55,042 nucleotides of DNA from a virus: IMG/VR virus record IMGVR_UViG_3300045988_114880, one strand, 5' to 3'. The position numbers and the translations under genes are program-made. A model generated the notes under the pieces. It did not search any database. It was not told the DNA's origin and saw only the letters and a program-made list of their open reading frames with translations. Below, in pieces: positions 1 through 55,042 of this stretch. Every line of letters begins with the position of its first letter. Position 1 is the stretch's first letter.

Positions 1-119
1 TTGAAATTGGAAACGAAAGGTTGAATTGTTTTTATAGGCATTTCATTTACAAAATCCGTAAATTCACTCCATGAAGAAAACGATTTTGTTCCCTTCGGAT
101 TTCCCAAAAGTTCTCCCAG
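1..119. repeat. Terminal inverted repeat, left copy (perfect reverse complement of 54924..55042)
   Basis: Direct comparison: 1-119 equals the reverse complement of 54924-55042 with no mismatch; identity ends at 120/54923. Confidence 0.97.
105..119 (-). repeat. 15-bp crossover core CTGGGAGAACTTTTG (minus strand), in front of silent cassette A
   Basis: Same 15-mer as 529..543 (minus) and 54924..54938 (plus); an in-frame TGA lies two codons upstream on the minus strand. Confidence 0.75.
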
Positions 120-135
120 CTCTCAACTTATGCTA

Positions 136-531
136 TTATTCTGTTGCAATTTGTTGCCAATCCCTTAATGGTTCTGTCGTTTCAATAACCGTTAAATCAT
201 CCATGGCTTTTATCTCCATAATGCCAGCTGAATTATCAGGGCATTCCAGCATGATGTCAAAATAATTAGCGCTATTCAACTTTTGATACAGCTTAAATTG
301 GATATCATTTCCACATATCAATTTAAAATGGGAAACTCCATTACGATACCCACTTAATGAAGCTACATAGCAAGACGATATTCCATTTCTTAGCACATAT
401 AGTAAGCATATTACAGGTTTATATACATATAGTTCCTCTTTATATGCTATCTTGTATAATTTGCCTTGAATTAAATCAAAATATGCTGTTCTCCTTGTTA
501 ATCCCTTATTAGTATTTGTCGAAAGTGGCAA
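136..531 (-). CDS. Start-less alternative C-terminal cassette B of the invertible receptor-binding gene (about 130 codons)
   Basis: The minus-strand reading frame continues from core LGELL (543..529) into PLSTNTNKGL...; the only 'start' is the TTG of the core; an in-frame TAA lies 6 codons upstream of the core. Confidence 0.6.
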   Translation of the reverse strand: MPLSTNTNKGLTRRTAYFDLIQGKLYKIAYKEELYVYKPVICLLYVLRNGISSCYVASLSGYRNGVSHFKLICGNDIQFKLYQKLNSANYFDIMLECPDNSAGIMEIKAMDDLTVIETTEPLRDWQQIATE

Positions 532-543
532 AAGTTCTCCCAG
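529..543 (-). repeat. 15-bp crossover core CTGGGAGAACTTTTG (minus strand), in front of cassette B
   Basis: Exact third copy of the core, in frame with cassette B. Confidence 0.75.
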
Positions 544-614
544 GTCGAGATTATAAGATTAATATTGTCGAATTTGATTATTTTGGAGGAAATAGCTAAA
601 TTTAAAATAAAAAT

Positions 615-1838
615 ATGCTAGAGAAGATACGATACAGGTTGGTCTTTAACCGCCAAAAGAAACTGAATAAGCAAGGCACGGCCCTTGTACAGATTGAAGC
701 TTATTTGAACCAAAGGAAAATCTACCTGAAGACCAATGTTTACCTCAAACCGGAATGCTGGAGCCGTGAGGGGGCACAAGTCATTAACCACCCCCAATCT
801 AACGAACTCAACACAATGCTCTATGAATACATCCTGTATCTGCAAGGCATAGAATTGGGGTATTGGAAGCGCGGAATACCTGCCACACTCTCACTACTGA
901 AGGATGCTGTCAAGAAGAAAAGTGCCGTGAATATCAGCTTCTCCACTTTCGCCAAATCAGCCATTGACAATTCGGACAAGAAGCAGTCCACCAAGGACAA
1001 CCTGCACTCGACACTGGCGGTCCTGCATGATTTCCGTTCCGGATTGGACTTCAAGGATCTTACCTATACATTCCTTCGTGATTTTGAGCAATACTTGAGA
1101 GAAAAGGGCAATGCGGTCAATACGATAGCCAAGCACATGAGACAGCTCCGTACCTTGGTCAATGAGGCAATCAACCAGGGATATATGCACGCCGACGCTT
1201 ATCCGTTCAGAAAGTACAAAATCAAACAGGAGAAAGGCAGACATGAGTTTCTTACCCCGGACGAGCTGAAGAAGCTGGAAACGGTCGAAGTGGAAGAGAA
1301 GTCCATGCGCCATGTGCTCGATGCCTTCCTGTTCTGCTGTTATACCGGATTGCGCTATTCTGACTTCTGCCAGCTCACACCTGAGAATTTCATTAGGATA
1401 AACGGCAAGCGGTGGCTGTACTTCAAATCCGTCAAGACAGGGGTGGAAATCCGTCTGCCGTTACATCTGCTGTTTGAAAGCAGGGCATTGGGCATTCTTG
1501 ACCGCTATCCGGATATCGGAAGTTTTGCCGCTTTGCCTTGTAACTCGGAAGTGAATAAGCAGCTTCGAAAGCTGGCCGGGTTATGTGGTATCAAAAAGCG
1601 GATAACCTACCATGTGAGCCGTCATACCTGTGCCACCCTGCTGATTCATCAGGGAGTGGCTATTACCACTGTGCAGAAACTGCTCGGACATACTTCCGTA
1701 AAGACCACACAGATTTATTCGGAGGTACTTTCCAGCACCATTGTGCGTGACTTGAAAAATGTTCAAAGGAAAAGGAAAAAAGTAAAGATGTTTCCCGATA
1801 AAGGCTTGAGAACATCTGATTTTATAGACAACCGGTAG
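615..1838 (+). CDS. Tyrosine site-specific recombinase, candidate shufflon invertase
   Basis: C-terminal HVSRHTCATLL...LLGHTSVKTTQIYSEV (R-H-R-Y catalytic signature); Bacteroides-type N-terminal arm-binding region; begins about 70 bp from core copy 2. Confidence 0.85.
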   Translation: MLEKIRYRLVFNRQKKLNKQGTALVQIEAYLNQRKIYLKTNVYLKPECWSREGAQVINHPQSNELNTMLYEYILYLQGIELGYWKRGIPATLSLLKDAVKKKSAVNISFSTFAKSAIDNSDKKQSTKDNLHSTLAVLHDFRSGLDFKDLTYTFLRDFEQYLREKGNAVNTIAKHMRQLRTLVNEAINQGYMHADAYPFRKYKIKQEKGRHEFLTPDELKKLETVEVEEKSMRHVLDAFLFCCYTGLRYSDFCQLTPENFIRINGKRWLYFKSVKTGVEIRLPLHLLFESRALGILDRYPDIGSFAALPCNSEVNKQLRKLAGLCGIKKRITYHVSRHTCATLLIHQGVAITTVQKLLGHTSVKTTQIYSEVLSSTIVRDLKNVQRKRKKVKMFPDKGLRTSDFIDNR

Positions 1839-4860: not shown

Positions 4861-6081
4861 ATGACTATGGCTACCGTTAATTTCTATCTTGACACAAGAA
4901 GGGCAAAGGCTAACAATAAATACCCTATTAAGTTACGTATCCAGCATGAAAGCAAATTATTGCTTTCTACGGGGTTTGATTCTGCCATTGAAGCATGGGA
5001 TGGAAGTTGCTATAATAAGAAAGAACCAAATTATAAATATAAAAATGCAGCATTGCGCAATATCTTTGCCGCTGTAGAGAATGAACTTCTTGTCATGCAT
5101 TCTATGGGAAAGCTTAAAGTGATAACCGATAAGATGCTGAAATCTCACTTGGAAGAAATTATTAGCGGCAGGAAAAAGAGTGAAAAGTCATTCATTGATT
5201 ATTTGGATGAATTTGTTTCATTGAAGAATAATGCCGGCACAAAGATTGTTTATGAAACTACCCGAAACAAACTGCTGGCTTTTGACCCTAATTGTACATT
5301 CGATACTATGGACAGAAAATGGCTTGTGTCATTCGAGAATTGGATGAGTGGAAGCGGAATGAAGATAAATGCCTATGCTATTCATATTCGGAATATTCGT
5401 GCTGTTTTCAACTATGCCATTGATGAAGAGATAACCACATTATATCCATTTAGGAAATTCAAGATAAAGAAAGAAGAAACCCGAAAGCGTTCTCTCACCA
5501 TCGAGCAGATTAGAGTACTGAAAGCCTATCCATGCGAGGAATTTGAGGAGAGATACAGGGACTTATTTATGCTGTCGTTTTATTTGATCGGCATAAATAT
5601 AGGGGATATGCTTCTGCTGAAAGAGGAGAACATAGTCAACGGGCGGATTGAATATCATCGTCGAAAAACTGGAAAATTGTATTCAGTGAAGATAGAACCG
5701 GAAGCGCAGGGTATAATTGATCGATATAAGGGAAGGCAATATCTCTTGAATGTTTTGGACGAGTATTCTAATTACAAAGATTTTATCAGTCGGATAAACA
5801 AGGCACTGAAGAATATAGGGCCATTCGAGCGTAAAGGGCTGGGAGGAAAGAAGGTTCGCCAACCGTTATTTCCGGATCTGTCCACATATTGGGCCCGCCA
5901 TTCATGGGCTACATTGGCTGCGGAACTTGATATACCTAAAGAAACTATATCTGCCGGTTTAGGACATGAGATTGGTTCTGATGTTACTAGTATCTATATC
6001 AAATTCGATCAGAAGAAGGTGGACGATGCCAATAGGAGAGTGATTGACTATGTGTTTGGAAAAGAAAAAGCCGGGAAATGA
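4861..6081 (+). CDS. int: Phage integrase (tyrosine recombinase) adjacent to attP
   Basis: WARHSWATLA...GLGHEIGSDVTSIYIKF catalytic region; position next to the tRNA-derived att site. Confidence 0.88.
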   Translation: MTMATVNFYLDTRRAKANNKYPIKLRIQHESKLLLSTGFDSAIEAWDGSCYNKKEPNYKYKNAALRNIFAAVENELLVMHSMGKLKVITDKMLKSHLEEIISGRKKSEKSFIDYLDEFVSLKNNAGTKIVYETTRNKLLAFDPNCTFDTMDRKWLVSFENWMSGSGMKINAYAIHIRNIRAVFNYAIDEEITTLYPFRKFKIKKEETRKRSLTIEQIRVLKAYPCEEFEERYRDLFMLSFYLIGINIGDMLLLKEENIVNGRIEYHRRKTGKLYSVKIEPEAQGIIDRYKGRQYLLNVLDEYSNYKDFISRINKALKNIGPFERKGLGGKKVRQPLFPDLSTYWARHSWATLAAELDIPKETISAGLGHEIGSDVTSIYIKFDQKKVDDANRRVIDYVFGKEKAGK

Positions 6082-6284
6082 TGCCCGGCTTATATTGTTG
6101 GTTTAGAACCGCCACTTATTTTGGTTATAGCGTCATGCTCTGTGTTTTTTCTTTGTTTCTCATCCTCGTCTTTGAGATACTTGTTCCTTATATCTTTGAT
6201 GTCGTTTGTCATTCCCCATACTTTGAAGAAGAGAATAATTTGTAATACTCCGAATATTAGGAGTATGATTTAGGTGTAGTTGTA

Positions 6285-6320
6285 ACAAGCAGTGCATAAA
6301 AATAAATATGCACTGCTTGT
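6285..6320. terminator. Bidirectional terminator between convergent int and the 6325..7530 gene
   Basis: Perfect 14-bp inverted repeat ACAAGCAGTGCATA / TATGCACTGCTTGT. Confidence 0.7.
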
Positions 6321-6324
6321 TTGA

Positions 6325-7530
6325 TTAAAGTTTTTCGTTTTTTAATAATTCTGGATGGTCATATGTGTAATATACCTTGAAAATAAAAGTATATTCATTA
6401 ATAACATCTCTAATCTGGATGGGCAGCATTAATCTGATTTCGCCAGCTTCTTTTCCTATATATTTTTCAGGGAGCATGGAATGCTTTTTCCATCCATTTC
6501 CGATTGTGCTATAACCTATTTTTATACCATCGTCATAATAAACATTAGATGTCGGGGTTGCTAAATCTTCAATTTTGGCACCTTTTATGATTGTGGTAGC
6601 TGGTTGGTCTCCTTCTCGTTCGGAGAATTTTGTTCCAACATGCATAATTTTTGAGGATAAACCATCTAATCCTACAAATGCTGCTTCATTCCAAATGATT
6701 TTAAGAGAATGATCGGATACATTTTTTAGCATAAAGTTAAATTGCTCTGAAGTACCAAAAATTACAATGTCTATTATGCTGTCGTTATATGAATATTTAT
6801 CAATCCCATTGTCTTGTATGATTTTTGTGTTACCATATCGATTTGTTGCTTTTTCTGGCTTTTCAACTTTCAATAAAGCTGTCTTATAGCTTCCTTTGAG
6901 TGCCTTTTGAAAAGGCGTAGTTTTAACCATTGAATACGGACATTCTATAATTTCCCCAGTTCGTTTATTTTTAACTTTTACATTTATTTCTGCTGTCGCA
7001 TAATCTTTACCAACTCCCTTTCCTATAAATAGATCAATAATTTCATATTGATCTTTGACCATATCGTGTTGTATTATTTTTCCCATATGAAGTTGTTTGT
7101 ATTCCTCAAAAGGTTCAGTGAAAACAATGGGCATATACGAAATGAGTGGCCATTGTTTAACTCCACTCCATATACTAACTTTTACGGAAACTTCTTCATA
7201 CCCTTTAAATTTAATTTTTCTTTTAGACCCGTTTTCGATAGCAATGATAGAAATTTCTTTATTAGGCTTGTCGTTAAGAGTTATATTTTTAACTGTGACT
7301 TTTGATATAGTGTAAGTCTTGCCAATGTAAGATTCATTAAATTTAAATCCAGATTTATCCCATGTTTCTAATTGCCCATATGCGGGGCGCACCGTAAAGC
7401 ATTTTCCTACATATTGTTGGTATTCTTCTTCTGTCTTTTGTTGATTAAAGCCAAAGTTGGTACTAGTGTTAAAGGCGAAGGATGTAATATGGCTTACTAG
7501 TAGTCCAAGCAAAAATAAAATCTTCTTCAT
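6325..7530 (-). CDS. Secreted protein of unknown function (signal peptide), last gene of the lysogeny operon
   Basis: MKKILFLLGLLVSHITSFA signal sequence; beta-rich composition; lies 20 bp downstream of the CI gene on the same strand. Confidence 0.65.
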   Translation of the reverse strand: MKKILFLLGLLVSHITSFAFNTSTNFGFNQQKTEEEYQQYVGKCFTVRPAYGQLETWDKSGFKFNESYIGKTYTISKVTVKNITLNDKPNKEISIIAIENGSKRKIKFKGYEEVSVKVSIWSGVKQWPLISYMPIVFTEPFEEYKQLHMGKIIQHDMVKDQYEIIDLFIGKGVGKDYATAEINVKVKNKRTGEIIECPYSMVKTTPFQKALKGSYKTALLKVEKPEKATNRYGNTKIIQDNGIDKYSYNDSIIDIVIFGTSEQFNFMLKNVSDHSLKIIWNEAAFVGLDGLSSKIMHVGTKFSEREGDQPATTIIKGAKIEDLATPTSNVYYDDGIKIGYSTIGNGWKKHSMLPEKYIGKEAGEIRLMLPIQIRDVINEYTFIFKVYYTYDHPELLKNEKL

Positions 7531-7550
7531 AATCTTAATATATTTAGTTT

Positions 7551-8237
7551 CTAAAATCTCTTTACAGCTCCCAATACTTGAAATATAGTTCTAATCATTC
7601 TTGCTGGAAGTTGTTGTGGGGAATACTCTGGTGATTTATTGGATGGGATGAGCGTATATGAATCGTCAGTTTTCCCAGCTCCCAATCTTTTTATAGTGCG
7701 CATATCGTTTGTTGTAACGATGGCATACACTTCTCCAAGTGGAAGAAATGATTTATCTTCTATTTTCTTTAATGCTATTATATCTCCGTGATTGATTTCC
7801 GGTTCCATAGAATGACCTGTAACATTGCACCAGCAATCCGCATTATTGTATTTTTGAAAATCTATCATATATTCCGGATTTATAGTTTGGTCGTTTAGAA
7901 TCAGGTCAAAACCACCTATAAAATCTACATTATAATAGGGAACGCCTGTTGTATAGTTGATTTTAGGTTGTTCAGTACCATATTCCAAAATTGGCTCCAT
8001 TACAATATTCTCGTTATTTTCTTTACGAGACAACATCTCTCCTTCACCAGTAAGAAGCCAGTTTGCATTTACATCTGGGAATTTTGATAAAATTTTGTTG
8101 AGTACATTTTTACCAGCACCACGAGATACCCAATTACTTATTGTTTGTGGGCTTTCTTCCATTTTTCTTGCAAAATCAGCTTTTGATTCGCAGAAATGAG
8201 AAATAATATCAGAAATTCTTTCACCTTCTGTTTTCAT
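7551..8237 (-). CDS. CI-like repressor: XRE HTH plus S24 (LexA-like) autopeptidase domain
   Basis: N-terminal HTH (KADFARKMEESPQTISNWVS); C-terminal GHSMEP serine motif and a downstream IKRL lysine. Confidence 0.85.
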   Translation of the reverse strand: MKTEGERISDIISHFCESKADFARKMEESPQTISNWVSRGAGKNVLNKILSKFPDVNANWLLTGEGEMLSRKENNENIVMEPILEYGTEQPKINYTTGVPYYNVDFIGGFDLILNDQTINPEYMIDFQKYNNADCWCNVTGHSMEPEINHGDIIALKKIEDKSFLPLGEVYAIVTTNDMRTIKRLGAGKTDDSYTLIPSNKSPEYSPQQLPARMIRTIFQVLGAVKRF

Positions 8238-8511
8238 ATAAACAATTTTGTGTATATTTGTGTCGGAATCAAGTTGCGGATGATTTCAACTAATTTGTTT
8301 AACTATTCCCGTAAGGGACTATATAGGCGACTTAACTTCAAACCGCAACTTTGGAGTTGGTCGCTTTACTTTTATAGTTATGGTAATAATCAATCCTTTT
8401 CTATTTGAATCAATGAGAATGCAAATAGAAGAGTCATCTCATACGCCAAACAAAACAATCTGTAAGGATCCATTTAAAGAATCAAACAGGCTTGTTGATA
8501 ATGCAAAAGAA

Positions 8512-9054
8512 TCATACTTCAAGATCTTGAAGGAAGAGAAGCGCGCTATCAGAGAAAGTGCCAATCCTTCCGAGTTTAATCTTTAGTTTCCTTGTGAATG
8601 CATCGTCAAACAGTGTATATCCATATCGTGTTTTAAGTTCTTTCAACTGATTAATAACATAATCTATATCTTCCTTATCTTTAGTCTTTTCAGTGGTCTC
8701 AAGCATCATGTAAATAGATTGCCTTATATCTGCTATATTTTTTAATTTCATAGCCATGTGTAGCAGGCGTATCTCTATATACATCATAGTTTTTGCTGTA
8801 TGAATTACATGATGGTCACTTATGTCCTGTAATTTTTCTTCTATTTCATTTTTAAGGTCGTTTTTTAACCCAAAAATGTTATATCCAACCATTACGGCTA
8901 ATGCTCCTACAACGAAAGAAAGAAAAGCAATCATAGAATCGAATAGAGTCCATGTTACAGGCTCGTATTTGCATAGCCATAGCAATATTGCAATGACACT
9001 TAATCCCAGTGCTATCCGCGCTATCCAATTTCTATTTCTGTCTTCTTTCTTCAT
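8512..9054 (-). CDS. Two-TM membrane protein, first gene of the leftward lysogeny operon (possible superinfection exclusion)
   Basis: Two hydrophobic helices (IARIALGLSVIAILLWL and MIAFLSFVVGALAVMVGY) followed by a helical cytoplasmic part. Confidence 0.55.
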   Translation of the reverse strand: MKKEDRNRNWIARIALGLSVIAILLWLCKYEPVTWTLFDSMIAFLSFVVGALAVMVGYNIFGLKNDLKNEIEEKLQDISDHHVIHTAKTMMYIEIRLLHMAMKLKNIADIRQSIYMMLETTEKTKDKEDIDYVINQLKELKTRYGYTLFDDAFTRKLKIKLGRIGTFSDSALLFLQDLEV

Positions 9055-9131
9055 ATTATAATAAGGTATAATCTGCTTTAATAGTTAAATAGTGTTTATA
9101 TACACATATTTGTTTATATGCTATTTGTAGT

Positions 9132-9149
9132 ATACACAAAAACGTGTAT
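9132..9149. promoter_or_regulatory. Palindromic operator ATACAC-N6-GTGTAT overlapping the early rightward promoter
   Basis: Perfect 6+6 inverted repeat in the divergent CI/early intergenic region; overlaps the -7 box. Confidence 0.5.
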
Positions 9150-9154
9150 CTTTG
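9147..9154 (+). promoter_or_regulatory. -7 promoter box TATCTTTG of the rightward early operon
   Basis: Exact TAnnTTTG match about 80 nt upstream of ATG 9235. Confidence 0.45.
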
Positions 9155-9234
9155 CATTATCAAATTAAACTGATACAAAGAAACGAAGATTAATTCAGAT
9201 TTCAAATAGTATAAACATATTAAAATACACGATT

Positions 9235-9561
9235 ATGAGAACAAGAGAATTTTTACACGAAGTAATGAGCCTTGCTTGGCAGTTCGTTAAGCGTAATGGC
9301 TACACCATGAGCGAAGCAATGAAGGTCGCTTGGGCTAATTTGAAACTGAAAGGTGAGATGAAGAAGAAGATAGTGAAGTTCTACTTCAAAAAAGTGGACG
9401 GTTCTGTTCGTGAGGCATACGGTACACTAAATGAAAAGCTGATGCCTGCCATCACTGGTACTGACAATAGAAAGAAGAATGATACCGTCCAGACTTACTA
9501 TGATACTGAACGCCAAGAATTCAGATGCTTCAAAAAAGCTAATCTGATGTCAATCGCATAA
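9235..9561 (+). CDS. Early protein, DUF2693/SH3-barrel-like
   Basis: F.KVDGSVREAYGTL...YYDTERQEFRCFKKANL pattern, recalled from the Bacteroides DUF2693 family. Confidence 0.5.
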   Translation: MRTREFLHEVMSLAWQFVKRNGYTMSEAMKVAWANLKLKGEMKKKIVKFYFKKVDGSVREAYGTLNEKLMPAITGTDNRKKNDTVQTYYDTERQEFRCFKKANLMSIA

Positions 9562-43411: not shown

Positions 43412-46400
43412 ATGTCAAAATTATATTTTAAGATAGGTAGTGACTGGGAAGAAGTTGTAAGACTTCGTAATGAAATTGCAAAATTAAAGCAGGAGTTAAT
43501 GAGCATGGATGGCACGCAGACTCCTGCTGCTTTCAAGGCTTTGAATGCCCAACTTGCTGCATCCAACCAAAGATTGGATGAGTTGGTGACTAATGCAGCC
43601 AAAGCTGGAGCGGAGATGGAAACGGGATTCAAAAGGAAAATCTTCGATGCTTCTCAGGTCGTGAATGGATTGTCGGAAAAAATAACATTTCAACGTGGAA
43701 CTATCCAACAATTGAAAAATGAATTGTCCGGTCTTAAAGACAAGTATCGTGAAGCATTAAAACAGGATGGTGATACTTCTTCCTTAGAAGCTAAAATAAG
43801 GTCTACAAATGAAAAATTGAAAGAGCAAAAAAGTTCTTTATTTAACCTTACCCAGGAACAGGCTAACGCCCGCTTGTCAGTAAAGAAGCTCCGCGATGAA
43901 TATGCTTTGTATCGGCAAGATGGTGAAAAAAATGTAGATGTAACTAAGCAGGTGGAACAAGCCATGTCTAATATGGGTAAGAAACTGCTGGGAGGTTATT
44001 CAATCAAAGAATTCTTGTCAAGTATGATTCGTGTTCGTGGCGAATTTCAATCCATGCAGACCGCTATTGAGACTATGGTTGGAAAGGATATGGCAGGGCA
44101 ACTGATTCCGCAAATCAAGGAGCTGGCTAAGATTTCTCCACTTACTATGTCAGATATGGTTGGAGCAGAAAAGATGATGCTTGGATTTAACATACAAGCA
44201 GAAGACACTATCAAATACTTGAAAGCCATTAGTGATATTTCTATGGGGGAATCCAGTAAGTTCAATTCGCTAACTTTGGCATTTTCACAGATGTCAGCAG
44301 CGGGTAAACTTATGGGGCAGGATTTGAATCAAATGATAAACGCTGGATTCAACCCGTTACAGATTATCTCCGAAAAGACCGGAAAATCTATCGCAACTTT
44401 GAAAGATGAAATGTCCAAAGGTGCTGTTTCCGCTGAAATGGTTCAACAGGCATTCATTGATGCAACTTCCGCAGGTGGTAAGTTCTATAATATGTCTGAG
44501 AATGCCTCAAAGACTATCAATGGTCAGTTGTCTATGATGCAGGATGCTTTGGATTCCGTGTTTAACGAATTGGGAACAAAGTCGGAAAGTGTTATCATGG
44601 ACGGTATTCAAATGACAACTTCGTTGATTCAGAATTATGAAACAGTAGGTAAGATCTTGGCTGGATTAGTGGTTACTTATGGTACATACCGGACCGCAGT
44701 GATGCTTGTTACTGCTGCCGAAAGTAAACATACTCTTGTGGAGATTGGACTTACCAATGCCCGTTTATTGGCACGAAAAGCGCAGTTAGCTTTAAACGCT
44801 GCAATGCTTACCAATCCTTATGTGTTGTTGGCTACTGCTGTAGTAGGACTTGGAGTTGCAATGTTGGCTTTCCGCGATTCGGCAACAGAAGCAGAAAAGG
44901 CACAGAGAAGGTTTAATGAACAGCAAGAAGAAGCTAAAAAGCAAGAAGAAGAACACAAACAGAAGATTGATTCCCTCGTACAAAGTTCTCGTGATATAGC
45001 GTTGTCGGATTTACAAAGAGGTCGAAGTTTAGCGGAGTTAAGAAAAGAATACCCTAAGATATTCGCTCAATATGACATCGAAACCATTAAGTTGGCTGAT
45101 ATACTTAAACTAAAGCAACAGATAACGGAAGAAGATGCGAAACGTGCCGGAGAAAAGCAAACCAAGGAACTTTCTAACATTGAATCTGAAATCAAATATT
45201 ACGAGAATCTGCTGAAAACTCTTTCCGGTCAGCAAGGCGTTGATGGATATGTGAAGAAACTAAAAGAATTGCGTGCTATGCGTGATGTCATGCTGCAAGA
45301 AAAAGGCAAAGGCATCTCCGAACAGTTCATTTCCAATCTTAAAGATGTTAATACTAATGAGTTTGACCGCTACATCTCTGAGTTGGAGAAGCGTATCAGA
45401 GGAAAGGGGGGAAATGGAACTGTGAAACTTCGTTTGCCTATTGATATTAAGGGTACTTTGTCTGATGAAGCAATCTATAATGTGAAAGACATAAAAACAC
45501 TTATAGATACAGCAAAATCAGTCAAGCAAACCCGAATTGATTCAGAGAAGAATAAAACTACCTACAAGCAGGATTATGAGAAAGCGAAGAAAGACTGGGA
45601 TGATGCTAAGAAGAAACTTTCTGAAATAGAAAAGAATAAATCCAAGTTTACTTCAAAGCTGTATGAAGAAGCTAAGAAACGAGTAGAAACAACTGAAAAA
45701 GCCTATAAAAATTTGGGCGGTATTACTGGTAGTTCTTTGACCAAGCAGGAAAAAGCTGCTGAAAAGCAAAAAAAAGAACAAAAAAAGACAGCCGAACAAC
45801 TTCTTTCACTTCACCGTCAGAACCAACAGGATGAAATCAACCTGATGATAGAAGGCACGGAAAAGAAGTTGAAACAGATTGACCTTGATTATCAGAAACA
45901 GATTGATGCGATAAGAAAACAGGAGGAAGAATGGAGCAAAGCCGGTAACGGTAAGCTGACCGACAAGCAGGCACAGAAAATTTCAGAAGCTTATACCAAT
46001 GCCGAAAGTATGAGAGATAAAGATATTTCCGATGTAACTGAAGGACAGCTGAAAGCCGAACAACAGGCTTTGAACGACTACTTGAAAGAATATGGCACGT
46101 TCCAGCAGCAGAAATTGGCTATCGCCCAAGAGTATGCGGAAAAAATAAGGAAAGCACAGGAAGAAAACGGTGTTAATAGTGCACAAGTAAAGTTACTGGA
46201 GAAACAACGTGATGTTGCCATACAGAACAAGGAAACAGAAGCCATAAAAGCCAATATAGATTGGGTTACTGTGTTCGGTGAGTTTGGTTCCATGTTTTCC
46301 GACATGATAAAGCCCGCCTTGGACGAAGCGAAAAAATATGTACGGACTGACAAGTTCAAGAACTCCGATCAGGCAAGCCAGAAATCATTGATTGACGCCA

Positions 46401-48235
46401 TCAGCCAGATGGAAAAGTCTTTGGGTGGTACAAGTGGAGTCAACTTCAAGAAACTTGGAGAGGATGTAAAAGCCTATCAAATAGCAGAACAGAATCGTAT
46501 CAGTGCCATAGGGATTGAAACAGCTGCTTTGGAAAGACTAAAGAAATCACAGGATGATTACACCAAAGCGCAGAAGGGCGGAACGGAAAGTGAGAAACAA
46601 GCCGCAGCAAACGCTCTTGAAACAGCACGGCAGAATGCTGACATTGCATCCGCCAATGTGAAGACACAGACTGATATCGCCAATCAGGCCCAGCGTAATG
46701 TGACTGATACCGCCACCAGACTGAAAGCAAGCATGGAAAATTTGTTGGGAGGCTTGCAGCAGATTTCATCCGGTGGATTGTATAACGCATATAGCGGAAT
46801 TATCAAAACCGTGAACGGATTCAAGGATGTCATAGGAAAAACGTCAGAATCTCTTAAGGAGGTCCCCATCGTCGGATGGATTCTGTCCATCATTGACGTA
46901 CTCAAAGACGGATTAAGTGATCTTGTCGGTGGTCTGCTTGATGCTGTTCTGAACGCTGTCAGTGGAATTATCGGTGATGTCTTGTCAGGGGATTTGTTTG
47001 TCACAATCGGCAAGTCATTGAGGAACGGCATAGGAAACATCCTGAACGCAATCTCATTCGGAGGCTTCAACTCCTTGTTTGGAATAGGTGGAAACGCCAA
47101 GGAAGTACAGGAAACGATAGACAGGCTGACGGACAGGAATGAAACTTTGCAAACGGCCATCGAGGATCTGACTGACGAGATGAAGGCAAGCAAGGGAATG
47201 AAATCGGTTGAATCTTACAGGGAAGCTGTAAAGTATCAGGAGGAAGTCAATAAAAACTATCTGCAAATAGCAAAGGAGCAAGCCGGATATCATAAGAGCC
47301 ACGGCAGCTGGCAGCATTATCTGAAATGGACGGATGAAATGCTGGAACACGCAAGAAAAGCTACCGGCATGCAGGATTTCTCCGGCACCGATTCCTTGTG
47401 GAATCTGACCCCCGAACAGATGAAAGCTCTACGGTCGGACGTATGGTTATGGGATATCATGGAATCTTCCGGTAAGGGAGGTTACGGTGAGCGTGTTACC
47501 GACAAGCTGGATGATTATATAGAGCAGGCAGGAAAACTGGAAGAACTGACCGACAGTCTTTATGAGGGCCTGATCGGAATGTCATTCGATTCCATGTATG
47601 ACAGTTTTATAAGCAGTCTGATGGATATGGAGAAGAGTGCGGAGGATTTTGCTGATGACATATCCAAATATTTCATGCAGGCGATGCTGTCAAATGCCAT
47701 CGGTGAACAGTTTAGTGACAAACTGAGGACATGGTATGATAAATTCGGTGAAGCCATGAAGGATGATGGTACGCTTGACAATAATGAGCGTAAGGAGCTG
47801 ATGGATGAATACATGGGTTATGTGGACGAAGCCATGAAGCTCCGTGACGAGCTTGCCGCAGCAACCGGATATGATAAGATTTCGCAAGAATCCTATTCTC
47901 AATCTTCTTCATCAAGAGGGTTCGGCACTGAAATGACGCATGAAGATGCAGGAGAGTTGAACGGTAGGTTTACAGCATTGCAGATTACAGGAGAAGAGAT
48001 AAAGAATCAAAATATCATTCAATCTCAATCACTTAATCTACTGACAGTAAAAGCAGATGCTCTACTTTCCATAAATACGGAAACAAGAAATATTGCTGAT
48101 GATACGCGGGATTTGATAGCGCAATCCTATCTTGAATTGGTACAGATTTCAGAAAATACAGGGGCAATCGTCAAACCTATTCAACAGATGCAAAGAGATA
48201 TAGCAGAGGTTAAAAAGAATACAGCAAAATTATAG
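43412..48235 (+). CDS. Tape measure protein (1607 aa)
   Basis: Size, coiled-coil composition, central hydrophobic segments and position. Confidence 0.85.
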   Translation: MSKLYFKIGSDWEEVVRLRNEIAKLKQELMSMDGTQTPAAFKALNAQLAASNQRLDELVTNAAKAGAEMETGFKRKIFDASQVVNGLSEKITFQRGTIQQLKNELSGLKDKYREALKQDGDTSSLEAKIRSTNEKLKEQKSSLFNLTQEQANARLSVKKLRDEYALYRQDGEKNVDVTKQVEQAMSNMGKKLLGGYSIKEFLSSMIRVRGEFQSMQTAIETMVGKDMAGQLIPQIKELAKISPLTMSDMVGAEKMMLGFNIQAEDTIKYLKAISDISMGESSKFNSLTLAFSQMSAAGKLMGQDLNQMINAGFNPLQIISEKTGKSIATLKDEMSKGAVSAEMVQQAFIDATSAGGKFYNMSENASKTINGQLSMMQDALDSVFNELGTKSESVIMDGIQMTTSLIQNYETVGKILAGLVVTYGTYRTAVMLVTAAESKHTLVEIGLTNARLLARKAQLALNAAMLTNPYVLLATAVVGLGVAMLAFRDSATEAEKAQRRFNEQQEEAKKQEEEHKQKIDSLVQSSRDIALSDLQRGRSLAELRKEYPKIFAQYDIETIKLADILKLKQQITEEDAKRAGEKQTKELSNIESEIKYYENLLKTLSGQQGVDGYVKKLKELRAMRDVMLQEKGKGISEQFISNLKDVNTNEFDRYISELEKRIRGKGGNGTVKLRLPIDIKGTLSDEAIYNVKDIKTLIDTAKSVKQTRIDSEKNKTTYKQDYEKAKKDWDDAKKKLSEIEKNKSKFTSKLYEEAKKRVETTEKAYKNLGGITGSSLTKQEKAAEKQKKEQKKTAEQLLSLHRQNQQDEINLMIEGTEKKLKQIDLDYQKQIDAIRKQEEEWSKAGNGKLTDKQAQKISEAYTNAESMRDKDISDVTEGQLKAEQQALNDYLKEYGTFQQQKLAIAQEYAEKIRKAQEENGVNSAQVKLLEKQRDVAIQNKETEAIKANIDWVTVFGEFGSMFSDMIKPALDEAKKYVRTDKFKNSDQASQKSLIDAISQMEKSLGGTSGVNFKKLGEDVKAYQIAEQNRISAIGIETAALERLKKSQDDYTKAQKGGTESEKQAAANALETARQNADIASANVKTQTDIANQAQRNVTDTATRLKASMENLLGGLQQISSGGLYNAYSGIIKTVNGFKDVIGKTSESLKEVPIVGWILSIIDVLKDGLSDLVGGLLDAVLNAVSGIIGDVLSGDLFVTIGKSLRNGIGNILNAISFGGFNSLFGIGGNAKEVQETIDRLTDRNETLQTAIEDLTDEMKASKGMKSVESYREAVKYQEEVNKNYLQIAKEQAGYHKSHGSWQHYLKWTDEMLEHARKATGMQDFSGTDSLWNLTPEQMKALRSDVWLWDIMESSGKGGYGERVTDKLDDYIEQAGKLEELTDSLYEGLIGMSFDSMYDSFISSLMDMEKSAEDFADDISKYFMQAMLSNAIGEQFSDKLRTWYDKFGEAMKDDGTLDNNERKELMDEYMGYVDEAMKLRDELAAATGYDKISQESYSQSSSSRGFGTEMTHEDAGELNGRFTALQITGEEIKNQNIIQSQSLNLLTVKADALLSINTETRNIADDTRDLIAQSYLELVQISENTGAIVKPIQQMQRDIAEVKKNTAKL

Positions 48236-48238
48236 TTT

Positions 48239-48655
48239 ATGAATGAATTATTAATTAATGGCGAAAACGCTTATACAACATGGGGCGTGAGAATGGGAGA
48301 GGGGTTTCTTGATGTTATTGGGGCATCCGCTCCCATGAAGGATTTTATTGAGAACAAAAGCCGACTTGAACATGGGAAACGGGTAATAATCAATAATCCT
48401 AAAGTCGATGAGAGGGAAATAACTCTTTCGTTCACTATCGAGGGTAATTCTCAGTCTGACTATCAAGCAAAGAAGAAAGCTTTCTTTGATGAGCTGTATA
48501 AAGGTGTGGTTGATATTCAAGTTCCGGCTAACAGTAATGAGATTTATCATCTGATTTATCTTGGGAAAAGCGTTGCTTACGCACAGAGTTTAAACCGAAC
48601 TTTCGGAAAAATTTCAGCCAAGTTTAACGAGCCAAATCCGGCAAACAGAAGCTAA
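48239..48655 (+). CDS. Distal tail protein-like (by position)
   Basis: 138-aa ORF after the tape-measure gene. Confidence 0.45.
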   Translation: MNELLINGENAYTTWGVRMGEGFLDVIGASAPMKDFIENKSRLEHGKRVIINNPKVDEREITLSFTIEGNSQSDYQAKKKAFFDELYKGVVDIQVPANSNEIYHLIYLGKSVAYAQSLNRTFGKISAKFNEPNPANRS

Positions 48656-51700: not shown

Positions 51701-53931
51701 GGATGGTCATGGTCAAAGACGGGACTGACGGTAAGGACGGCAAAGGTTACGAGTGGATCTACACCCGTACCAACATCATCGGCCTTACCCCTGACAAGCC
51801 GGATTCGAAGCAGCAGGATGATTATATACCGGAAGGCTGGACAGATGATTTTCTTGGCGTGGATGCAGACCATCAGGTGGAATGGGCGTGCAAACGTGTG
51901 AAGCGTGATGGAGTATGGAGTGAATGGAGCACTCCGGCCCCTGTGCACCGTTGGAGTAAGGACGGGGAGTCGAATATCATGGCCGACCTTGACAATGAGA
52001 TGGTGAGCGTCGCTCTTACCAGTACCGGTGTTACTACTTCCGCACAGTCATGGACTACCCATGTATCCATGTGGTACGGTACCGAGAAACTCACCCTTGA
52101 GACTTTAACAGTCAGCACGCCTGCCGGTTTCACGGCAAGCACAAGCAAGGCCACCGGAGCGGTGGCGATATCCGTCGCTGCCGGAAAGTCGGTTCCGGAA
52201 CAGAATACGGTCACCATCACACTGGCTGCAATGAAGAACGGGCAGCTCTATACCCGTGAACTGACTTTCAAGATAACCGGTGTCCGTGGCGGGGCGGACG
52301 GTTCCGATGCGGTAATTTATAGCCTTGTCACTTCGGCCACGATGGTCAGCAAGAACAAGAACGGCGGTTACAGTGTAGCTTCGGTATCCTGCCGGCGTAT
52401 GAAGACAGTCGGTGCGGTCACTACGGCCACAACGGACGGGGAGTTGAAGTACAGTCGTGACGGTGCGGCCGAGGTTCCCATCGGTGATGGTGTCGGGGTG
52501 GCTTCCGGTAATTTTACCAGTAGCTTGAAGTTCGTGTTCTACGTGAACGGTCAGGCGGTTGATGTCGAGACTGTCCCGATGGTTGTGGACGGCAGTGACG
52601 GAAAGGATGGTGAGAGCATCACAGCAGCCGGTCATTGGGAATCCGCCAATACTCCGTATGCCAAGAACAGTACAGTATCGTTTGCCGGAGGATCTTACTT
52701 AAGCAAGGTTGAAACCTCCAACCCTCCGATTAAAATCGCCAAGTTCAGAAACGGCAGACTCCGCAGGAAAAGAGACGGCGGATACATCCTCGCCGGCAGA
52801 TCTGCGAACCGGACGGTACATGCGGACTGGCAGGAGATGGTTGCTCCCGTCGGACCGTCGGCATCCTACTGGCTGGACAGTCCTGTCAGCGTGATCAACT
52901 TCACTTCAACAGGCACGCCATCCCCGTCTGGATTCCTTGTCACTTGCAAACAGAATGTGGCAGGCAATGTAAGCACGTGCAGCACGCTTTATCTGGCTGC
53001 ACGCAAATACAACGGAAGCTGGCTGGCTCATGTAGGTGCGACACTGAACAGCCAGATATCCGTACCTGCGACAGCCGGATACACCCAGTTTGCCGTCCGG
53101 GCTTATAAATCAGCTTCCGATGCTGCTGCTTGGAATGACAATTATGTGGCCGAGAAGGGTGTGGGTGTTGCAAATGATGGTTCCATAGGAGCAACAGGAG
53201 CTACGGGTGCGTTCCCTTATGACAGAGGTGTATGGGCTTCCGGACAGACATACGTATGGAATGCAAAACAGCGTGACAAGATCATTCACAAAATAGGTGA
53301 AGTTTATTACAATTTTCTTGTGCGCAACTATGGAAGTTCTGTATCAGCGGCTCCTACATCCGCTAACGGAGATTCCAACTGGGAAGCCATGCAGAAATAC
53401 AAAAGTCTGGTAACCGACATATTCCTTGCTGATAAGGCGAACATAGCCGGATTTATGTTCAAGTTGAACGGATACACATCGGACGGGGCACCTTACGGTA
53501 TCATGCAGTCACAGGACAGCACTAACGGCCAGCCTAATCTGAGGATGGACACAAAGACCGGAGAGATTCTTTGTCAGAAAGCGAATATCACCGGGACTAT
53601 CATAGCGACAAAGGGGACAATTGGCGGATTCAATATCGGTAATAATTTTATCGGCAGCACTAATATGTCGGCTGTAAATGTTGATAATTTGTTGCTGCAA
53701 TACGACAAATTTGAAATGAAATACGAACGGTTCCAGTCAATAGACGGACATTTATACCAAGGTATTTTGGATACAGTAATTAGAAGTGGAAGTATAACTG
53801 TATCATCAACCGGGGATGTTTCAACAGCGAATGATACTCTGTATGTAAGATGTGGAAGTTATATTTTTTCAGTCGGGCGAAACGGAATTCGCAAGTCAAC
53901 GAATGGAGGAAGTACCTGGGTGGATTTATAA
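48736..53931 (+). CDS. Giant tail fibre / host-specificity protein with repeated carbohydrate-binding-like modules
   Basis: About 1730 aa; GDKGDPG collagen-like tract; duplicated GHWES..TPY...SK(V)xTSNPPIKIA.FRNG...DGGYILAG module; the ATG 48736 start is preferred over GTG 48679, which lies in the hairpin. Confidence 0.75.
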   Translation: MEQIDIKDISGAIQLTTLINEGCKRKFTLMKEDYIMLKFSLENPIYFKLGSYVECNFGLFEVCDLQKPAFNTNTAGYDYELQLDAYYWKWKNKIFKYTPETTGQEASWNLTAPLDVQVGIVLRNLKALGYTYKGQDFVFSIDSTVENKSQLMSYDNINILDACFEMAKKWDCECWVTENIIHFGRCESGDAVDFEIGKNVQEMSQSESQSTYATRIYAFGSTRNIPADYRPIDETVVVNGVVQRRLMLPEGTPYIDAYPDMTTEEAVEQVVIFDEVYPRRTGIMSDVTTIEVTDKVENEDGTTTEEKWNAYRFRDTGVNFSEKYILPGQELRIRFASGLLNGLEFAVKFNPEGKPEKLEDGGWNPEAQLWEIVRNEDYGRPLPGDVLFPQDGDEYVLSGWDSTKITELGLVGTAEQELKEKTEKYAAKSKIDPSTYGCTMMSNDAYREDGVHNFYSIGQKVNLINKAYFENGRQSRVIGFEFNLDYSFDSPVYTVGETAAYSRIGELEEKVESLTLKGQTYTGGGGSGVYVIGSHDSTPATDHNVYSALRSLIMFMRKDTEERTGFLLSLLGGTVIKKYAKFGDFVTGVSGGYIGEDARAELEALVLRSSLSVPELRFNRQTYFEGYNTISPGGGLKIKSFVANSDGSYTVIPDLEDGVPLGQKPDDILLGFWHDKSVTTGDFIGFRKIQYRITSADYDEKTFVMVPRPGYEFVPHNEMRLGQTGNFTDKERQTYIIIDVRDGNCCITLVDNANTWDPEPAQMKSWFGKKKGMTINGINCDRFSAVLQDIIMTGLIFQIDEITGSTVRVPIDFPSWEPGRKYAYYSRVPHNGSTWLCVNDKGTTSEPSENNPDWLVSAAKGDKGDPGLSVIGGGHWESSKTPYEVNTMVTLAGCVFISKVKTSNPPIKIARFRNGNYRKKKDGGYILAGKSADWTVHEDWEMLLDGRELKGESITFLGEFASHPSNPKEGDSYRNTADHCTYIYRNGLWMVMVKDGTDGKDGKGYEWIYTRTNIIGLTPDKPDSKQQDDYIPEGWTDDFLGVDADHQVEWACKRVKRDGVWSEWSTPAPVHRWSKDGESNIMADLDNEMVSVALTSTGVTTSAQSWTTHVSMWYGTEKLTLETLTVSTPAGFTASTSKATGAVAISVAAGKSVPEQNTVTITLAAMKNGQLYTRELTFKITGVRGGADGSDAVIYSLVTSATMVSKNKNGGYSVASVSCRRMKTVGAVTTATTDGELKYSRDGAAEVPIGDGVGVASGNFTSSLKFVFYVNGQAVDVETVPMVVDGSDGKDGESITAAGHWESANTPYAKNSTVSFAGGSYLSKVETSNPPIKIAKFRNGRLRRKRDGGYILAGRSANRTVHADWQEMVAPVGPSASYWLDSPVSVINFTSTGTPSPSGFLVTCKQNVAGNVSTCSTLYLAARKYNGSWLAHVGATLNSQISVPATAGYTQFAVRAYKSASDAAAWNDNYVAEKGVGVANDGSIGATGATGAFPYDRGVWASGQTYVWNAKQRDKIIHKIGEVYYNFLVRNYGSSVSAAPTSANGDSNWEAMQKYKSLVTDIFLADKANIAGFMFKLNGYTSDGAPYGIMQSQDSTNGQPNLRMDTKTGEILCQKANITGTIIATKGTIGGFNIGNNFIGSTNMSAVNVDNLLLQYDKFEMKYERFQSIDGHLYQGILDTVIRSGSITVSSTGDVSTANDTLYVRCGSYIFSVGRNGIRKSTNGGSTWVDL

Positions 53932-53949
53932 CATTTAAAATATTAAAGT

Positions 53950-54243
53950 ATGAGAATAAATTTTGCACAATTTCCTATTTACGACGGGATTAAGAAAGAA
54001 AAACTGATAGCCAACAACATCACTGAGGCCTACGGTGACTGGATATACAAGAACGTAGCGGGTTTGAAGGCGCATCTCCTTGCTGAGAAGATATTCAAAT
54101 CTACTGCTGAAGGTGTCGAGATTGACGAAGAAGAGGTGGATATCATAAGACGCTCCACCTCCATGCTGCCCGGTCTGCTGGCTGATTCTTTGAATGATTA
54201 TTTAGATAAAAAGGAGGAACAACATGAAAAAGGTATATTGTAA
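53950..54243 (+). CDS. Hypothetical acidic protein (97 aa)
   Basis: ORF after the fibre gene. Confidence 0.55.
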   Translation: MRINFAQFPIYDGIKKEKLIANNITEAYGDWIYKNVAGLKAHLLAEKIFKSTAEGVEIDEEEVDIIRRSTSMLPGLLADSLNDYLDKKEEQHEKGIL

Positions 54244-54643
54244 CAACCTTCTGGCAAAGGTGCTGCTTGCGTTCAGTTCTTGCCATACGATAACAATCGG
54301 TCCGTTTGTTTTAAGCAAGCGACCGGAAGAGAAAATCACTCAGAAAGTGAGAAACCATGAGTGTACCCACGCCCGTCAATGGGTTGAGATGGCAGTTGCC
54401 ATCGGTACAGTTATCTGGATCTTGCTGTTGTGTTTTGACCTTTCCGCCTGGTGGCTGGTACTGGCCGGGCTGGCATTCTATCTCTGGTATGGTGTGGAGT
54501 GGCTGGTCAGGGCGGTACGGTTGAAGGATGCCGGCAGGGCGTATAAGACGGTATCGTTTGAGAGGGAGGCATATTCCAACGAGGATGATCCGAATTATAT
54601 TGAGAACAGTAATTATTTTGCATGGGTGAAGTATTTGTTTTAA
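54224..54643 (+). CDS. Two-TM membrane protein with an HExxH-like motif
   Basis: NHECTHARQW followed by two hydrophobic helices. Confidence 0.5.
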   Translation: MKKVYCNNLLAKVLLAFSSCHTITIGPFVLSKRPEEKITQKVRNHECTHARQWVEMAVAIGTVIWILLLCFDLSAWWLVLAGLAFYLWYGVEWLVRAVRLKDAGRAYKTVSFEREAYSNEDDPNYIENSNYFAWVKYLF

Positions 54644-54659
54644 TTTTAAAATTTGCATT

Positions 54660-55042
54660 ATGGACTTGAATAATATAGTTGGCTTCAAAGCTGTGGATAA
54701 AAACGGCAACGAACGACAGGTGACCGTCGATGAGATGACAGAATTAGTTTCCGCACGGATTGTTTCCGCTGCATCAGAAATATCAACATTTGCTGCCGCT
54801 GCGGCAGCCGGAACAGATGAGTTTGAGGACCAGTTGCCCCAGTCCGACACCTTCTCTTGGCTCCGTACTTTGGACGGTTCCAAGAACCCAACTTTGACAT
54901 CTTCTTCGGCTGCCGCGAAAGTCCTGGGAGAACTTTTGGGAAATCCGAAGGGAACAAAATCGTTTTCTTCATGGAGTGAATTTACGGATTTTGTAAATGA
55001 AATGCCTATAAAAACAATTCAACCTTTCGTTTCCAATTTCAA
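54660..55042 (+). CDS. Constant N-terminal part of the invertible receptor-binding/tail-tip gene fused to cassette A (partial, runs off the contig)
   Basis: ATG 54660, with no stop before the window end; the core CTGGGAGAACTTTTG occupies codons 89-93. Confidence 0.7.
   Translation, partial: MDLNNIVGFKAVDKNGNERQVTVDEMTELVSARIVSAASEISTFAAAAAAGTDEFEDQLPQSDTFSWLRTLDGSKNPTLTSSSAAAKVLGELLGNPKGTKSFSSWSEFTDFVNEMPIKTIQPFVSNF
54924..54938 (+). repeat. 15-bp crossover core CTGGGAGAACTTTTG, expressed copy
   Basis: Identical to the inverted copies at 105..119 and 529..543. Confidence 0.75.
54924..55042. repeat. Terminal inverted repeat, right copy
   Basis: Perfect reverse complement of 1..119. Confidence 0.97.

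Follow-up and report, generated by a model that had tools for sequence, protein, structure and literature searches.

The stretch analysed here (the window, 55,042 nt of viral DNA) ends inside a small gene that follows the distal tail genes, and a short sequence within that gene recurs in inverted orientation near the opposite end. The question raised by this locus is whether the open-ended gene is the constant 5' part of a receptor-binding gene whose 3' part is exchanged by DNA inversion. The evidence gathered below makes it very probable that a small phage tail-fibre gene is here subject to a multiple-inversion system (shufflon). The reading frame opened by the ATG at 54660 extends over 127 codons and is free of stops up to 55040, as the initial annotation had stated, and LGELL does occupy codons 89–93 (CTG GGA GAA CTT TTG, 54924–54938). 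The corresponding 15-mer, CTGGGAGAACTTTTG, is present in exactly three copies in the window compared with 0.00 in shuffled sequence, and exact search placed its two inverted recurrences at 105–119 and 529–543, where they had been described. The looser motif CTGGGRGRACT identifies the same three sites against an expectation of 0.04, and the 10-bp motif TGGGAGAACT is located at 54925–54934 (+), 109–118 (-) and 533–542 (-). The window thus displays one forward and two reverse sites, as is characteristic of a shufflon. The portion of the expressed-gene site that is conserved throughout the family is CTGGGAGAACT (54924–54934). Both inverted copies are in frame with the segment that follows them, as had been proposed; the further claim that each copy precedes a different segment holds only for 529–543, since the copy at 105–119 is followed by the same 104 nt into which the ORF extends at the right end. 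The features of the locus and its surroundings are listed in Table 1.

Table 1 Coordinates of the features of the 55,042-nt window that are discussed in the text.
Feature	Coordinates	Strand	Basis or position
Same 104 nt of cassette A, silent inverted position	1..104	-	Exact reverse complement of 54939-55042
Recombination site ahead of silent cassette A	105..119	-	15-mer search; repeat comparison
Silent cassette B (PLSTNTNKGLTRR...QQIATE), stop 138-136	136..528	-	In frame with its site; found fused elsewhere
Terminal recombination site, ahead of cassette B	529..543	-	15-mer search
Spacer between terminal site and recombinase gene, 71 nt	544..614		Coordinates
Tyrosine recombinase, 407 aa, candidate shufflon invertase	615..1838	+	Arm-DNA-bind_5, SAM_5, Phage_integrase
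Second tyrosine recombinase (29% identity with the first; atypical catalytic positions)	4861..6081	+	Context
Tape measure	43412-48235		Upstream of distal tail protein
Dit-like protein	48239-48655		Between tape measure and 1750-aa tail protein
Large distal tail protein, 1750 aa	48679..53931	+	Context
Two small ORFs (97 and 139 aa)	53950-54243, 54224-54643		Between 1750-aa protein and fibre gene
Constant 5' part of small tail-fibre gene (codons 1-88, MDLNN...AAAKV)	54660..54923	+	ORF; database protein matches
Recombination site within expressed gene (codons 89-93, LGELL)	54924..54938	+	15-mer search
Start of cassette A in expressed position, 104 nt, cut by contig end	54939..55042	+	ORF; related proteins

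The two ends of the contig carry the same DNA. Window positions 1–119 are the exact reverse complement of 54924–55042, with identity stopping at the inner edge of the core, and the cassette at the left end (cassette A) is therefore the DNA in which the ORF continues at the right end. Positions 1–104 form the left arm of this 119-nt terminal inverted repeat. Within the window cassette A borders on the constant part at the right contig end and on the 3' end of cassette B at the left. The full cassette A comprises 94 codons after LGELL and results in a 187-aa protein (P0001–P0005; L001). Cassette B contributes 126 codons after the core and lacks a start codon of its own, the upstream stop being located five codons before the site. 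The gene architecture is thus that of a shufflon, with a constant part ending in a site and start-less, in-frame cassettes that bear their own stop. The junction between the constant part and cassette B, which the initial annotation had proposed to look for, was found in other assemblies (P0102/L002, P0071, L016 and L089). In one of these, L002, the expressed cassette B (2530–2540) displays a point change, TAATTGATT in place of the TAATTATTT found at about position 250 of the window, which introduces an early TGA stop and leaves a tip of 88 rather than 126 residues after LGELL. The junction formed by the tail of cassette B, the site and cassette A was recovered by exact search of IMG/VR in one other contig only (L078/L086), the source of the window itself not being among the matches. 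A further contig of 55,811 nt (L093) ends in reverse cassette A, reverse cassette B and the recombinase gene, the same as the left end of the window, and its recombinase is identical. The window contains only a fragment of the locus, the remainder of cassette A and any further cassettes having been lost at the assembly break.

A protein search with the 127-aa product matched 1193 database proteins. In the best 120 of these the first 88–92 residues are 97–100% identical to the query and divergence begins exactly after LGEL, from where at least 25 unrelated tails extend the proteins to a total length of mostly 172–220 aa. Similarly, about 90 related contigs share the 88-codon constant part, to which more than 50 unrelated tips are attached at CTGGGRGRACT. 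This set draws on eighty IMG/VR loci and several ENA/NCBI contigs; it also contains one contig labelled P. vulgatus ATCC 8482, in which the constant part is present at 97% identity. The cassettes comprise 84–144 codons each, begin in frame at CTGGGAGRACT, end with their own stop and have no start codon. Complete loci display a single order, in which the constant part and its site are followed by up to eight forward cassettes, a gap of 48–176 nt, up to seven reverse cassettes, the last site and the recombinase gene. Related loci hold up to 12 sites, and the two-cassette switch suggested by the initial annotation gives way to a multi-cassette shufflon. Clustering of the cassettes of 84 loci at 70% identity resulted in 56 clusters. 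Searches of the constant part and of cassettes A and B against Pfam, PHROGs and NCBIfam returned nothing. Cassette A was found twice in the expressed position, four times silent and forward and 11 times silent and reverse, and cassette B three, three and seven times, respectively; the appearance of the same cassettes in all three states supports the model of one constant part with alternative 3' parts. Irregular loci were also observed. In L009 a block of three cassettes (6265–9500; clusters 1, 2 and 0) is present as a same-strand tandem duplicate, the only duplication among 46 multi-cassette loci, which may be real or may result from misassembly. Remnant mini-cassettes are found in L065, where a cassette is truncated to 30 codons (at 7018), and in P0083, where the reading frame passes from one LGEL site through a short segment without a stop and enters a second site and its cassette.

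If cassettes were moved by inversion only, all forward cassettes should lie to the left of all reverse ones, and the central convergent pair should remain intact and be found in either orientation. The forward-before-reverse order shows no violation in the 32 loci that contain both orientations. The central pair (4,7) occurs in seven loci with an identical gap of 106 nt, its orientations split 4/3, and the pair (11,15), again in seven loci, has a 94-nt gap and a 5/2 split. The order in these 32 loci and the conserved central pairs thus conform to inversion with retention of cassettes, as in a shufflon. Eight contigs with 100% identical recombinases carry an overlapping set of cassettes in differently permuted orders, and in this group four different cassettes are found after the 3' end of cassette B. 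The joining of one constant 5' part to alternative 3' parts by inversion, which had been put forward from the window, is supported by the divergence after LGEL, by the fusions of the constant part to cassette B and by these orientation rules. The site at 529–543 marks the fixed boundary of the shufflon. The context upstream of it (NQIRQY*SYNLD) is common to all eight loci with the identical recombinase, and the recombinase gene starts 72 nt beyond the outer base of the site; in 10 of 12 related loci the homologous gene starts 67–72 nt past the last site, and in the loci so compared a homologue was always found beside the shufflon. Across the gene family the form of the site that extends the 11-mer is CTGGGAGRACT(NNT), in which position 14 is T in 98% of cases, and the sequence upstream of the sites is not conserved in the related loci. 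In the linkage analysis positions 12–18 of the site go with the downstream cassette and position 8 (A/G) is linked to it loosely, which locates the crossover to the conserved 11-mer or to its 5' side, the finest resolution that linkage provides.

The product of the gene next to the terminal site contains the Pfam domains PF00589, PF13102 and PF17293, so that a recombinase adjoins the locus as in a shufflon. Its canonical catalytic set is intact (R247, K274, H333-x-x-R336, H359 and Y368), and domains and catalytic residues together bear out the tyrosine recombinase that had been noted beside the locus. In NCBIfam this protein hit Xer and integron models below threshold only, with no curated invertase family above threshold, and the tyrosine-type DNA invertase model NF007370 reached 25.9 bits compared with a cut-off of 221. 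Position and catalytic chemistry suggest that this protein is the shufflon enzyme. The first 88 codons of the gene are fixed and end in a site, and a bank of promoter-less and start-less 3' cassettes lies downstream, those near the gene facing forward and those near the recombinase facing backward. In the mechanism proposed, the recombinase would exchange strands between the expressed site and any oppositely oriented site, thus flipping the intervening DNA, so that codon 93 is followed by a new cassette. A given virion lineage would then display one of many fibre tips, whose receptor specificities on Phocaeicola surfaces probably differ.

The repeat at the ends of the window is explained by the way in which such a locus is assembled. 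Twenty-three of 83 related contigs stop at most 120 nt past the constant part, and several end at a distance of exactly 55, 77, 99 or 119 nt, counted from where the site begins. These lengths are typical k-mer sizes of assemblers, and sibling contigs in ENA carry names of the form k119_*. A contig terminates at the first k-mer contained entirely in the site and the cassette if the reads offer two different predecessors for it. The 119-nt repeat is thus the signature of an assembly graph, cassette A having followed the constant part as well as cassette B in the sample. The assembler would have halted at the first 119-mer common to the two contexts, leaving the shufflon split over the contig ends, with constant part, site and cassette A at the right and reverse A, site, reverse B, site and recombinase at the left. 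The locus breaks short-read assemblies and yields contigs with inverted terminal repeats, which completeness tools that accept such repeats could call complete linear genomes although part of the shufflon is missing.

The presence of cassette A in two contexts could result from inversion in one population or from two co-resident strains. In the latter case the shufflon of the family would be real, but the repeat in the window would reflect two co-existing strains with fixed arrangements, and the locus may be frozen, with rearrangement taking place only over evolutionary time. Several related Phocaeicola prophages are often contained in one metagenome, and two phage lineages can become linked by common cassettes in a chimeric contig, as possibly in L016. 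Against a frozen locus, the recombinase is intact with its catalytic residues present, the arrangement varies among genomes with an identical recombinase, and junction reads reveal all configurations within populations of BV01-like phages (PMC13596623); the explanation by strains is judged unlikely. Still less probable, to the point of being very doubtful, is that the 119-nt repeat stems from a single molecule in which cassette A is truly present twice in inverted orientation, once expressed and once silent. At a genuine inverted repeat of 119 nt or more the contigs of a de Bruijn assembler would end in the same manner, and the duplication in L009 shows that cassettes can duplicate. However, the same cassette was found on both strands in none of the 46 multi-cassette loci (239 cassettes), which makes an inverted duplicate of cassette A unlikely, and the sole duplication is tandem and on the same strand; two arrangements in the sample are the better reading. 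Finally, the notion that the repeats are due to chance or are an assembly artefact, as the match between the length of the contig ends and an assembler k-mer size might suggest, and that the small reverse-strand ORFs are independent genes, has a negligible probability and was rejected on the chance counts (0 copies of the 15-mer expected), the start-less cassettes that begin in frame exactly at the site, their fusions to the constant part in other assemblies, the recurrence of the architecture in about 90 independent contigs and the order of orientations.

Structure prediction provides a view of the protein on which inversion would act. The AlphaFold model of the constant part joined to cassette A is poor (pLDDT 55), and a PDB sequence search with the same product gave chance-level hits only. 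The tail-fibre fold was obtained with another cassette type, P0078, and not with the constant part and cassette A of the window: the variable domain of P0078 (residues 100–180) is modelled as a small beta-sandwich with pLDDT of 77–89. At E<=1e-3 this model has 33 matches among viral predicted structures, and those that carry a name are mostly tail-fibre, tail-collar-fibre, BppU or baseplate proteins. A PDB fold search with it was weak, its best match, at E=0.012, being a phi812 baseplate chain. The fold predicted for P0078, together with the position of the gene after the distal tail genes, supports a role of the fibre protein as a putative receptor-binding tip. Immediately upstream of the fibre gene, the last 55 residues of the 139-aa ORF match PHROG 15610 ('protease'), and an identical 139-aa protein is found on more than 1000 Bacteroidales contigs; this ORF possibly encodes a fibre chaperone or assembly factor. 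The second tyrosine recombinase of the window is probably the phage integrase and stands outside the shufflon. Its catalytic domain falls below the Pfam threshold, and in the pairwise alignment with the first recombinase the first Arg is opposite Asn and the His of HxxR is opposite Tyr, a pattern which we take to resemble that of atypical IntDOT-type Bacteroides integrases. Several integrase-domain genes, one of them the proven integrase, have also been reported for phage BV01. The contig runs through the region of this second gene with phage genes on both sides, and the window may thus represent an excised circular form.

The same cassettes are used by a second constant part, which is 52% identical to the first. 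In L016 (8624–9217, -, and downstream) the last reverse cassette is fused to this second constant part (MSNLNLENIVGFKAVDKDGNEQ...), which is located in a different tail module reading in the opposite direction, and L016 is either a chimeric assembly of two phages via common cassettes or a face-to-face arrangement. Four other contigs (L039, L042, L050 and L067) likewise have no recombinase downstream. In L087–L090 an identical recombinase and a near-identical constant part are found behind a different tail module, with proteins of 1249 and 165 aa, where the window encodes proteins of 1750, 97 and 139 aa. It appears that the shufflon module moves from one phage lineage to another. A blastn search of 53900–55042 against the INPHARED phage collection gave no match, and the terminase/portal region was the only part of the window that matched a relative. 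This relative, Bacteroides phage BS-TP2 (L084/L085, PQ571275.1), is an isolated phage of B. salyersiae; its terminase/portal region is 97% identical to that of the window and its distal tail genes differ. BS-TP2 displays a variant site, CTGGAAGRACT, in gp85 (about position 56772 of the record), with inverted copies upstream of the 'integrase' gp3 (about 570–900), and probably carries an unannotated shufflon of the same family. The balance tilts slightly towards the view that the more than 50 tip families constitute a common pool, served by one recombinase and site system and shared by several Phocaeicola and Bacteroides phage lineages that differ in their tail modules and have at least two diverged constant parts; the system would then be far larger and more modular than the one described in PMC13596623. 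Such a pool would represent a community-wide, exchangeable library of host-range determinants aimed at the phase-variable surfaces of gut Bacteroidales. These bacteria vary their surface by inverting capsule promoters, and a phage that inverts among many fibre tips would make the matching counter-move. Switching of fibre tips bears on host range, on the persistence of phages and on the design of phage therapy.

The logic of the locus is shared with several known systems. In the Mu G (Gin), P1 C (Cin) and p15B Min systems, serine invertases act with an enhancer and Fis on two to six crossover sites. As proposed here, the C-terminal part of a tail fibre is inverted in these systems, which changes the host range, and p15B Min is likewise a multi-site system. 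In contrast, the enzyme adjoining the locus in the window is a tyrosine recombinase and not a serine invertase. The initial annotation had regarded a tyrosine enzyme as a departure from the systems that it named, but one of these, the R64 shufflon, already uses the tyrosine recombinase Rci, which acts on asymmetric sfx sites (PMC11852207). Thus, the R64/IncI shufflon (Rci, pilV) resembles the present locus in its multiple inversion run by a tyrosine recombinase and in the joining of a constant N-terminus to alternative C-termini. One side of sfx is conserved and the other is variable, an asymmetry proposed to restrict Rci to inversions (PMC11852207); the present sites display the same asymmetry, and only inversion-type arrangements were observed. 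R64 differs in its target, a pilus adhesin, and in its four segments and seven 31-bp sfx sites, and in contrast to Rci the recombinase of the window has an architecture of the Bacteroidota integrase type.

The initial annotation knew of no description of this exact arrangement, yet two reports precede the present analysis. Rin, in prophages of Bifidobacterium, was in 2018 the first phage-encoded tyrosine-invertase shufflon acting on a receptor-binding protein (PMC6109161). In both systems a phage tyrosine recombinase adjoins the constant 5' part of a receptor-binding-protein gene (Rc) (Mavrich et al. 2018, PMC6109161), and start-less variable 3' cassettes (Rv) each follow a short asymmetric site, which measures 11 bp. 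Compared by description, Rin differs in the phylum of its host, in having five cassettes and in its unrelated site, TTCCCTAACCC in place of CTGGGAGRACT. The closest system, and the one that makes the present locus already known, was described in September 2026 for BV01-like Phocaeicola vulgatus phages (PMC13596623); the 2020 paper on BV01 does not mention a shufflon. The Research Square preprint of 16 Sep 2026 reports an "active multi-cassette shufflon" that overlaps the tail-fibre gene's distal end, is flanked by a recombinase and contains directional 10-bp motifs, TGGGAGAACT (PMC13596623). Junction-spanning reads reveal all its configurations, so that inversion is active, and the 1.7-kb region comprises three cassettes that form six variants, with four extra sequences in an external cohort (PMC13596623). 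The likeness to the window, drawn from the motif and the layout given in the preprint, is close: TGGGAGAACT lies inside the CTGGGAGAACT of the window, and the distal end of a tail-fibre gene, the cassettes and the flanking recombinase are found in both. The host group is also the same, the proteins of the window being named from P. vulgatus and P. dorei, and the 58.9 kb of BV01, a prophage of P. vulgatus ATCC 8482, compare with the 55 kb of the window plus the missing shufflon. The present locus differs from that description in its family-wide extent, with up to 12 sites, 56 cassette clusters, several tail modules and no fewer than two families of constant part. What the present analysis adds to the known system is thus the scale and modularity of its repertoire of fibre tips.
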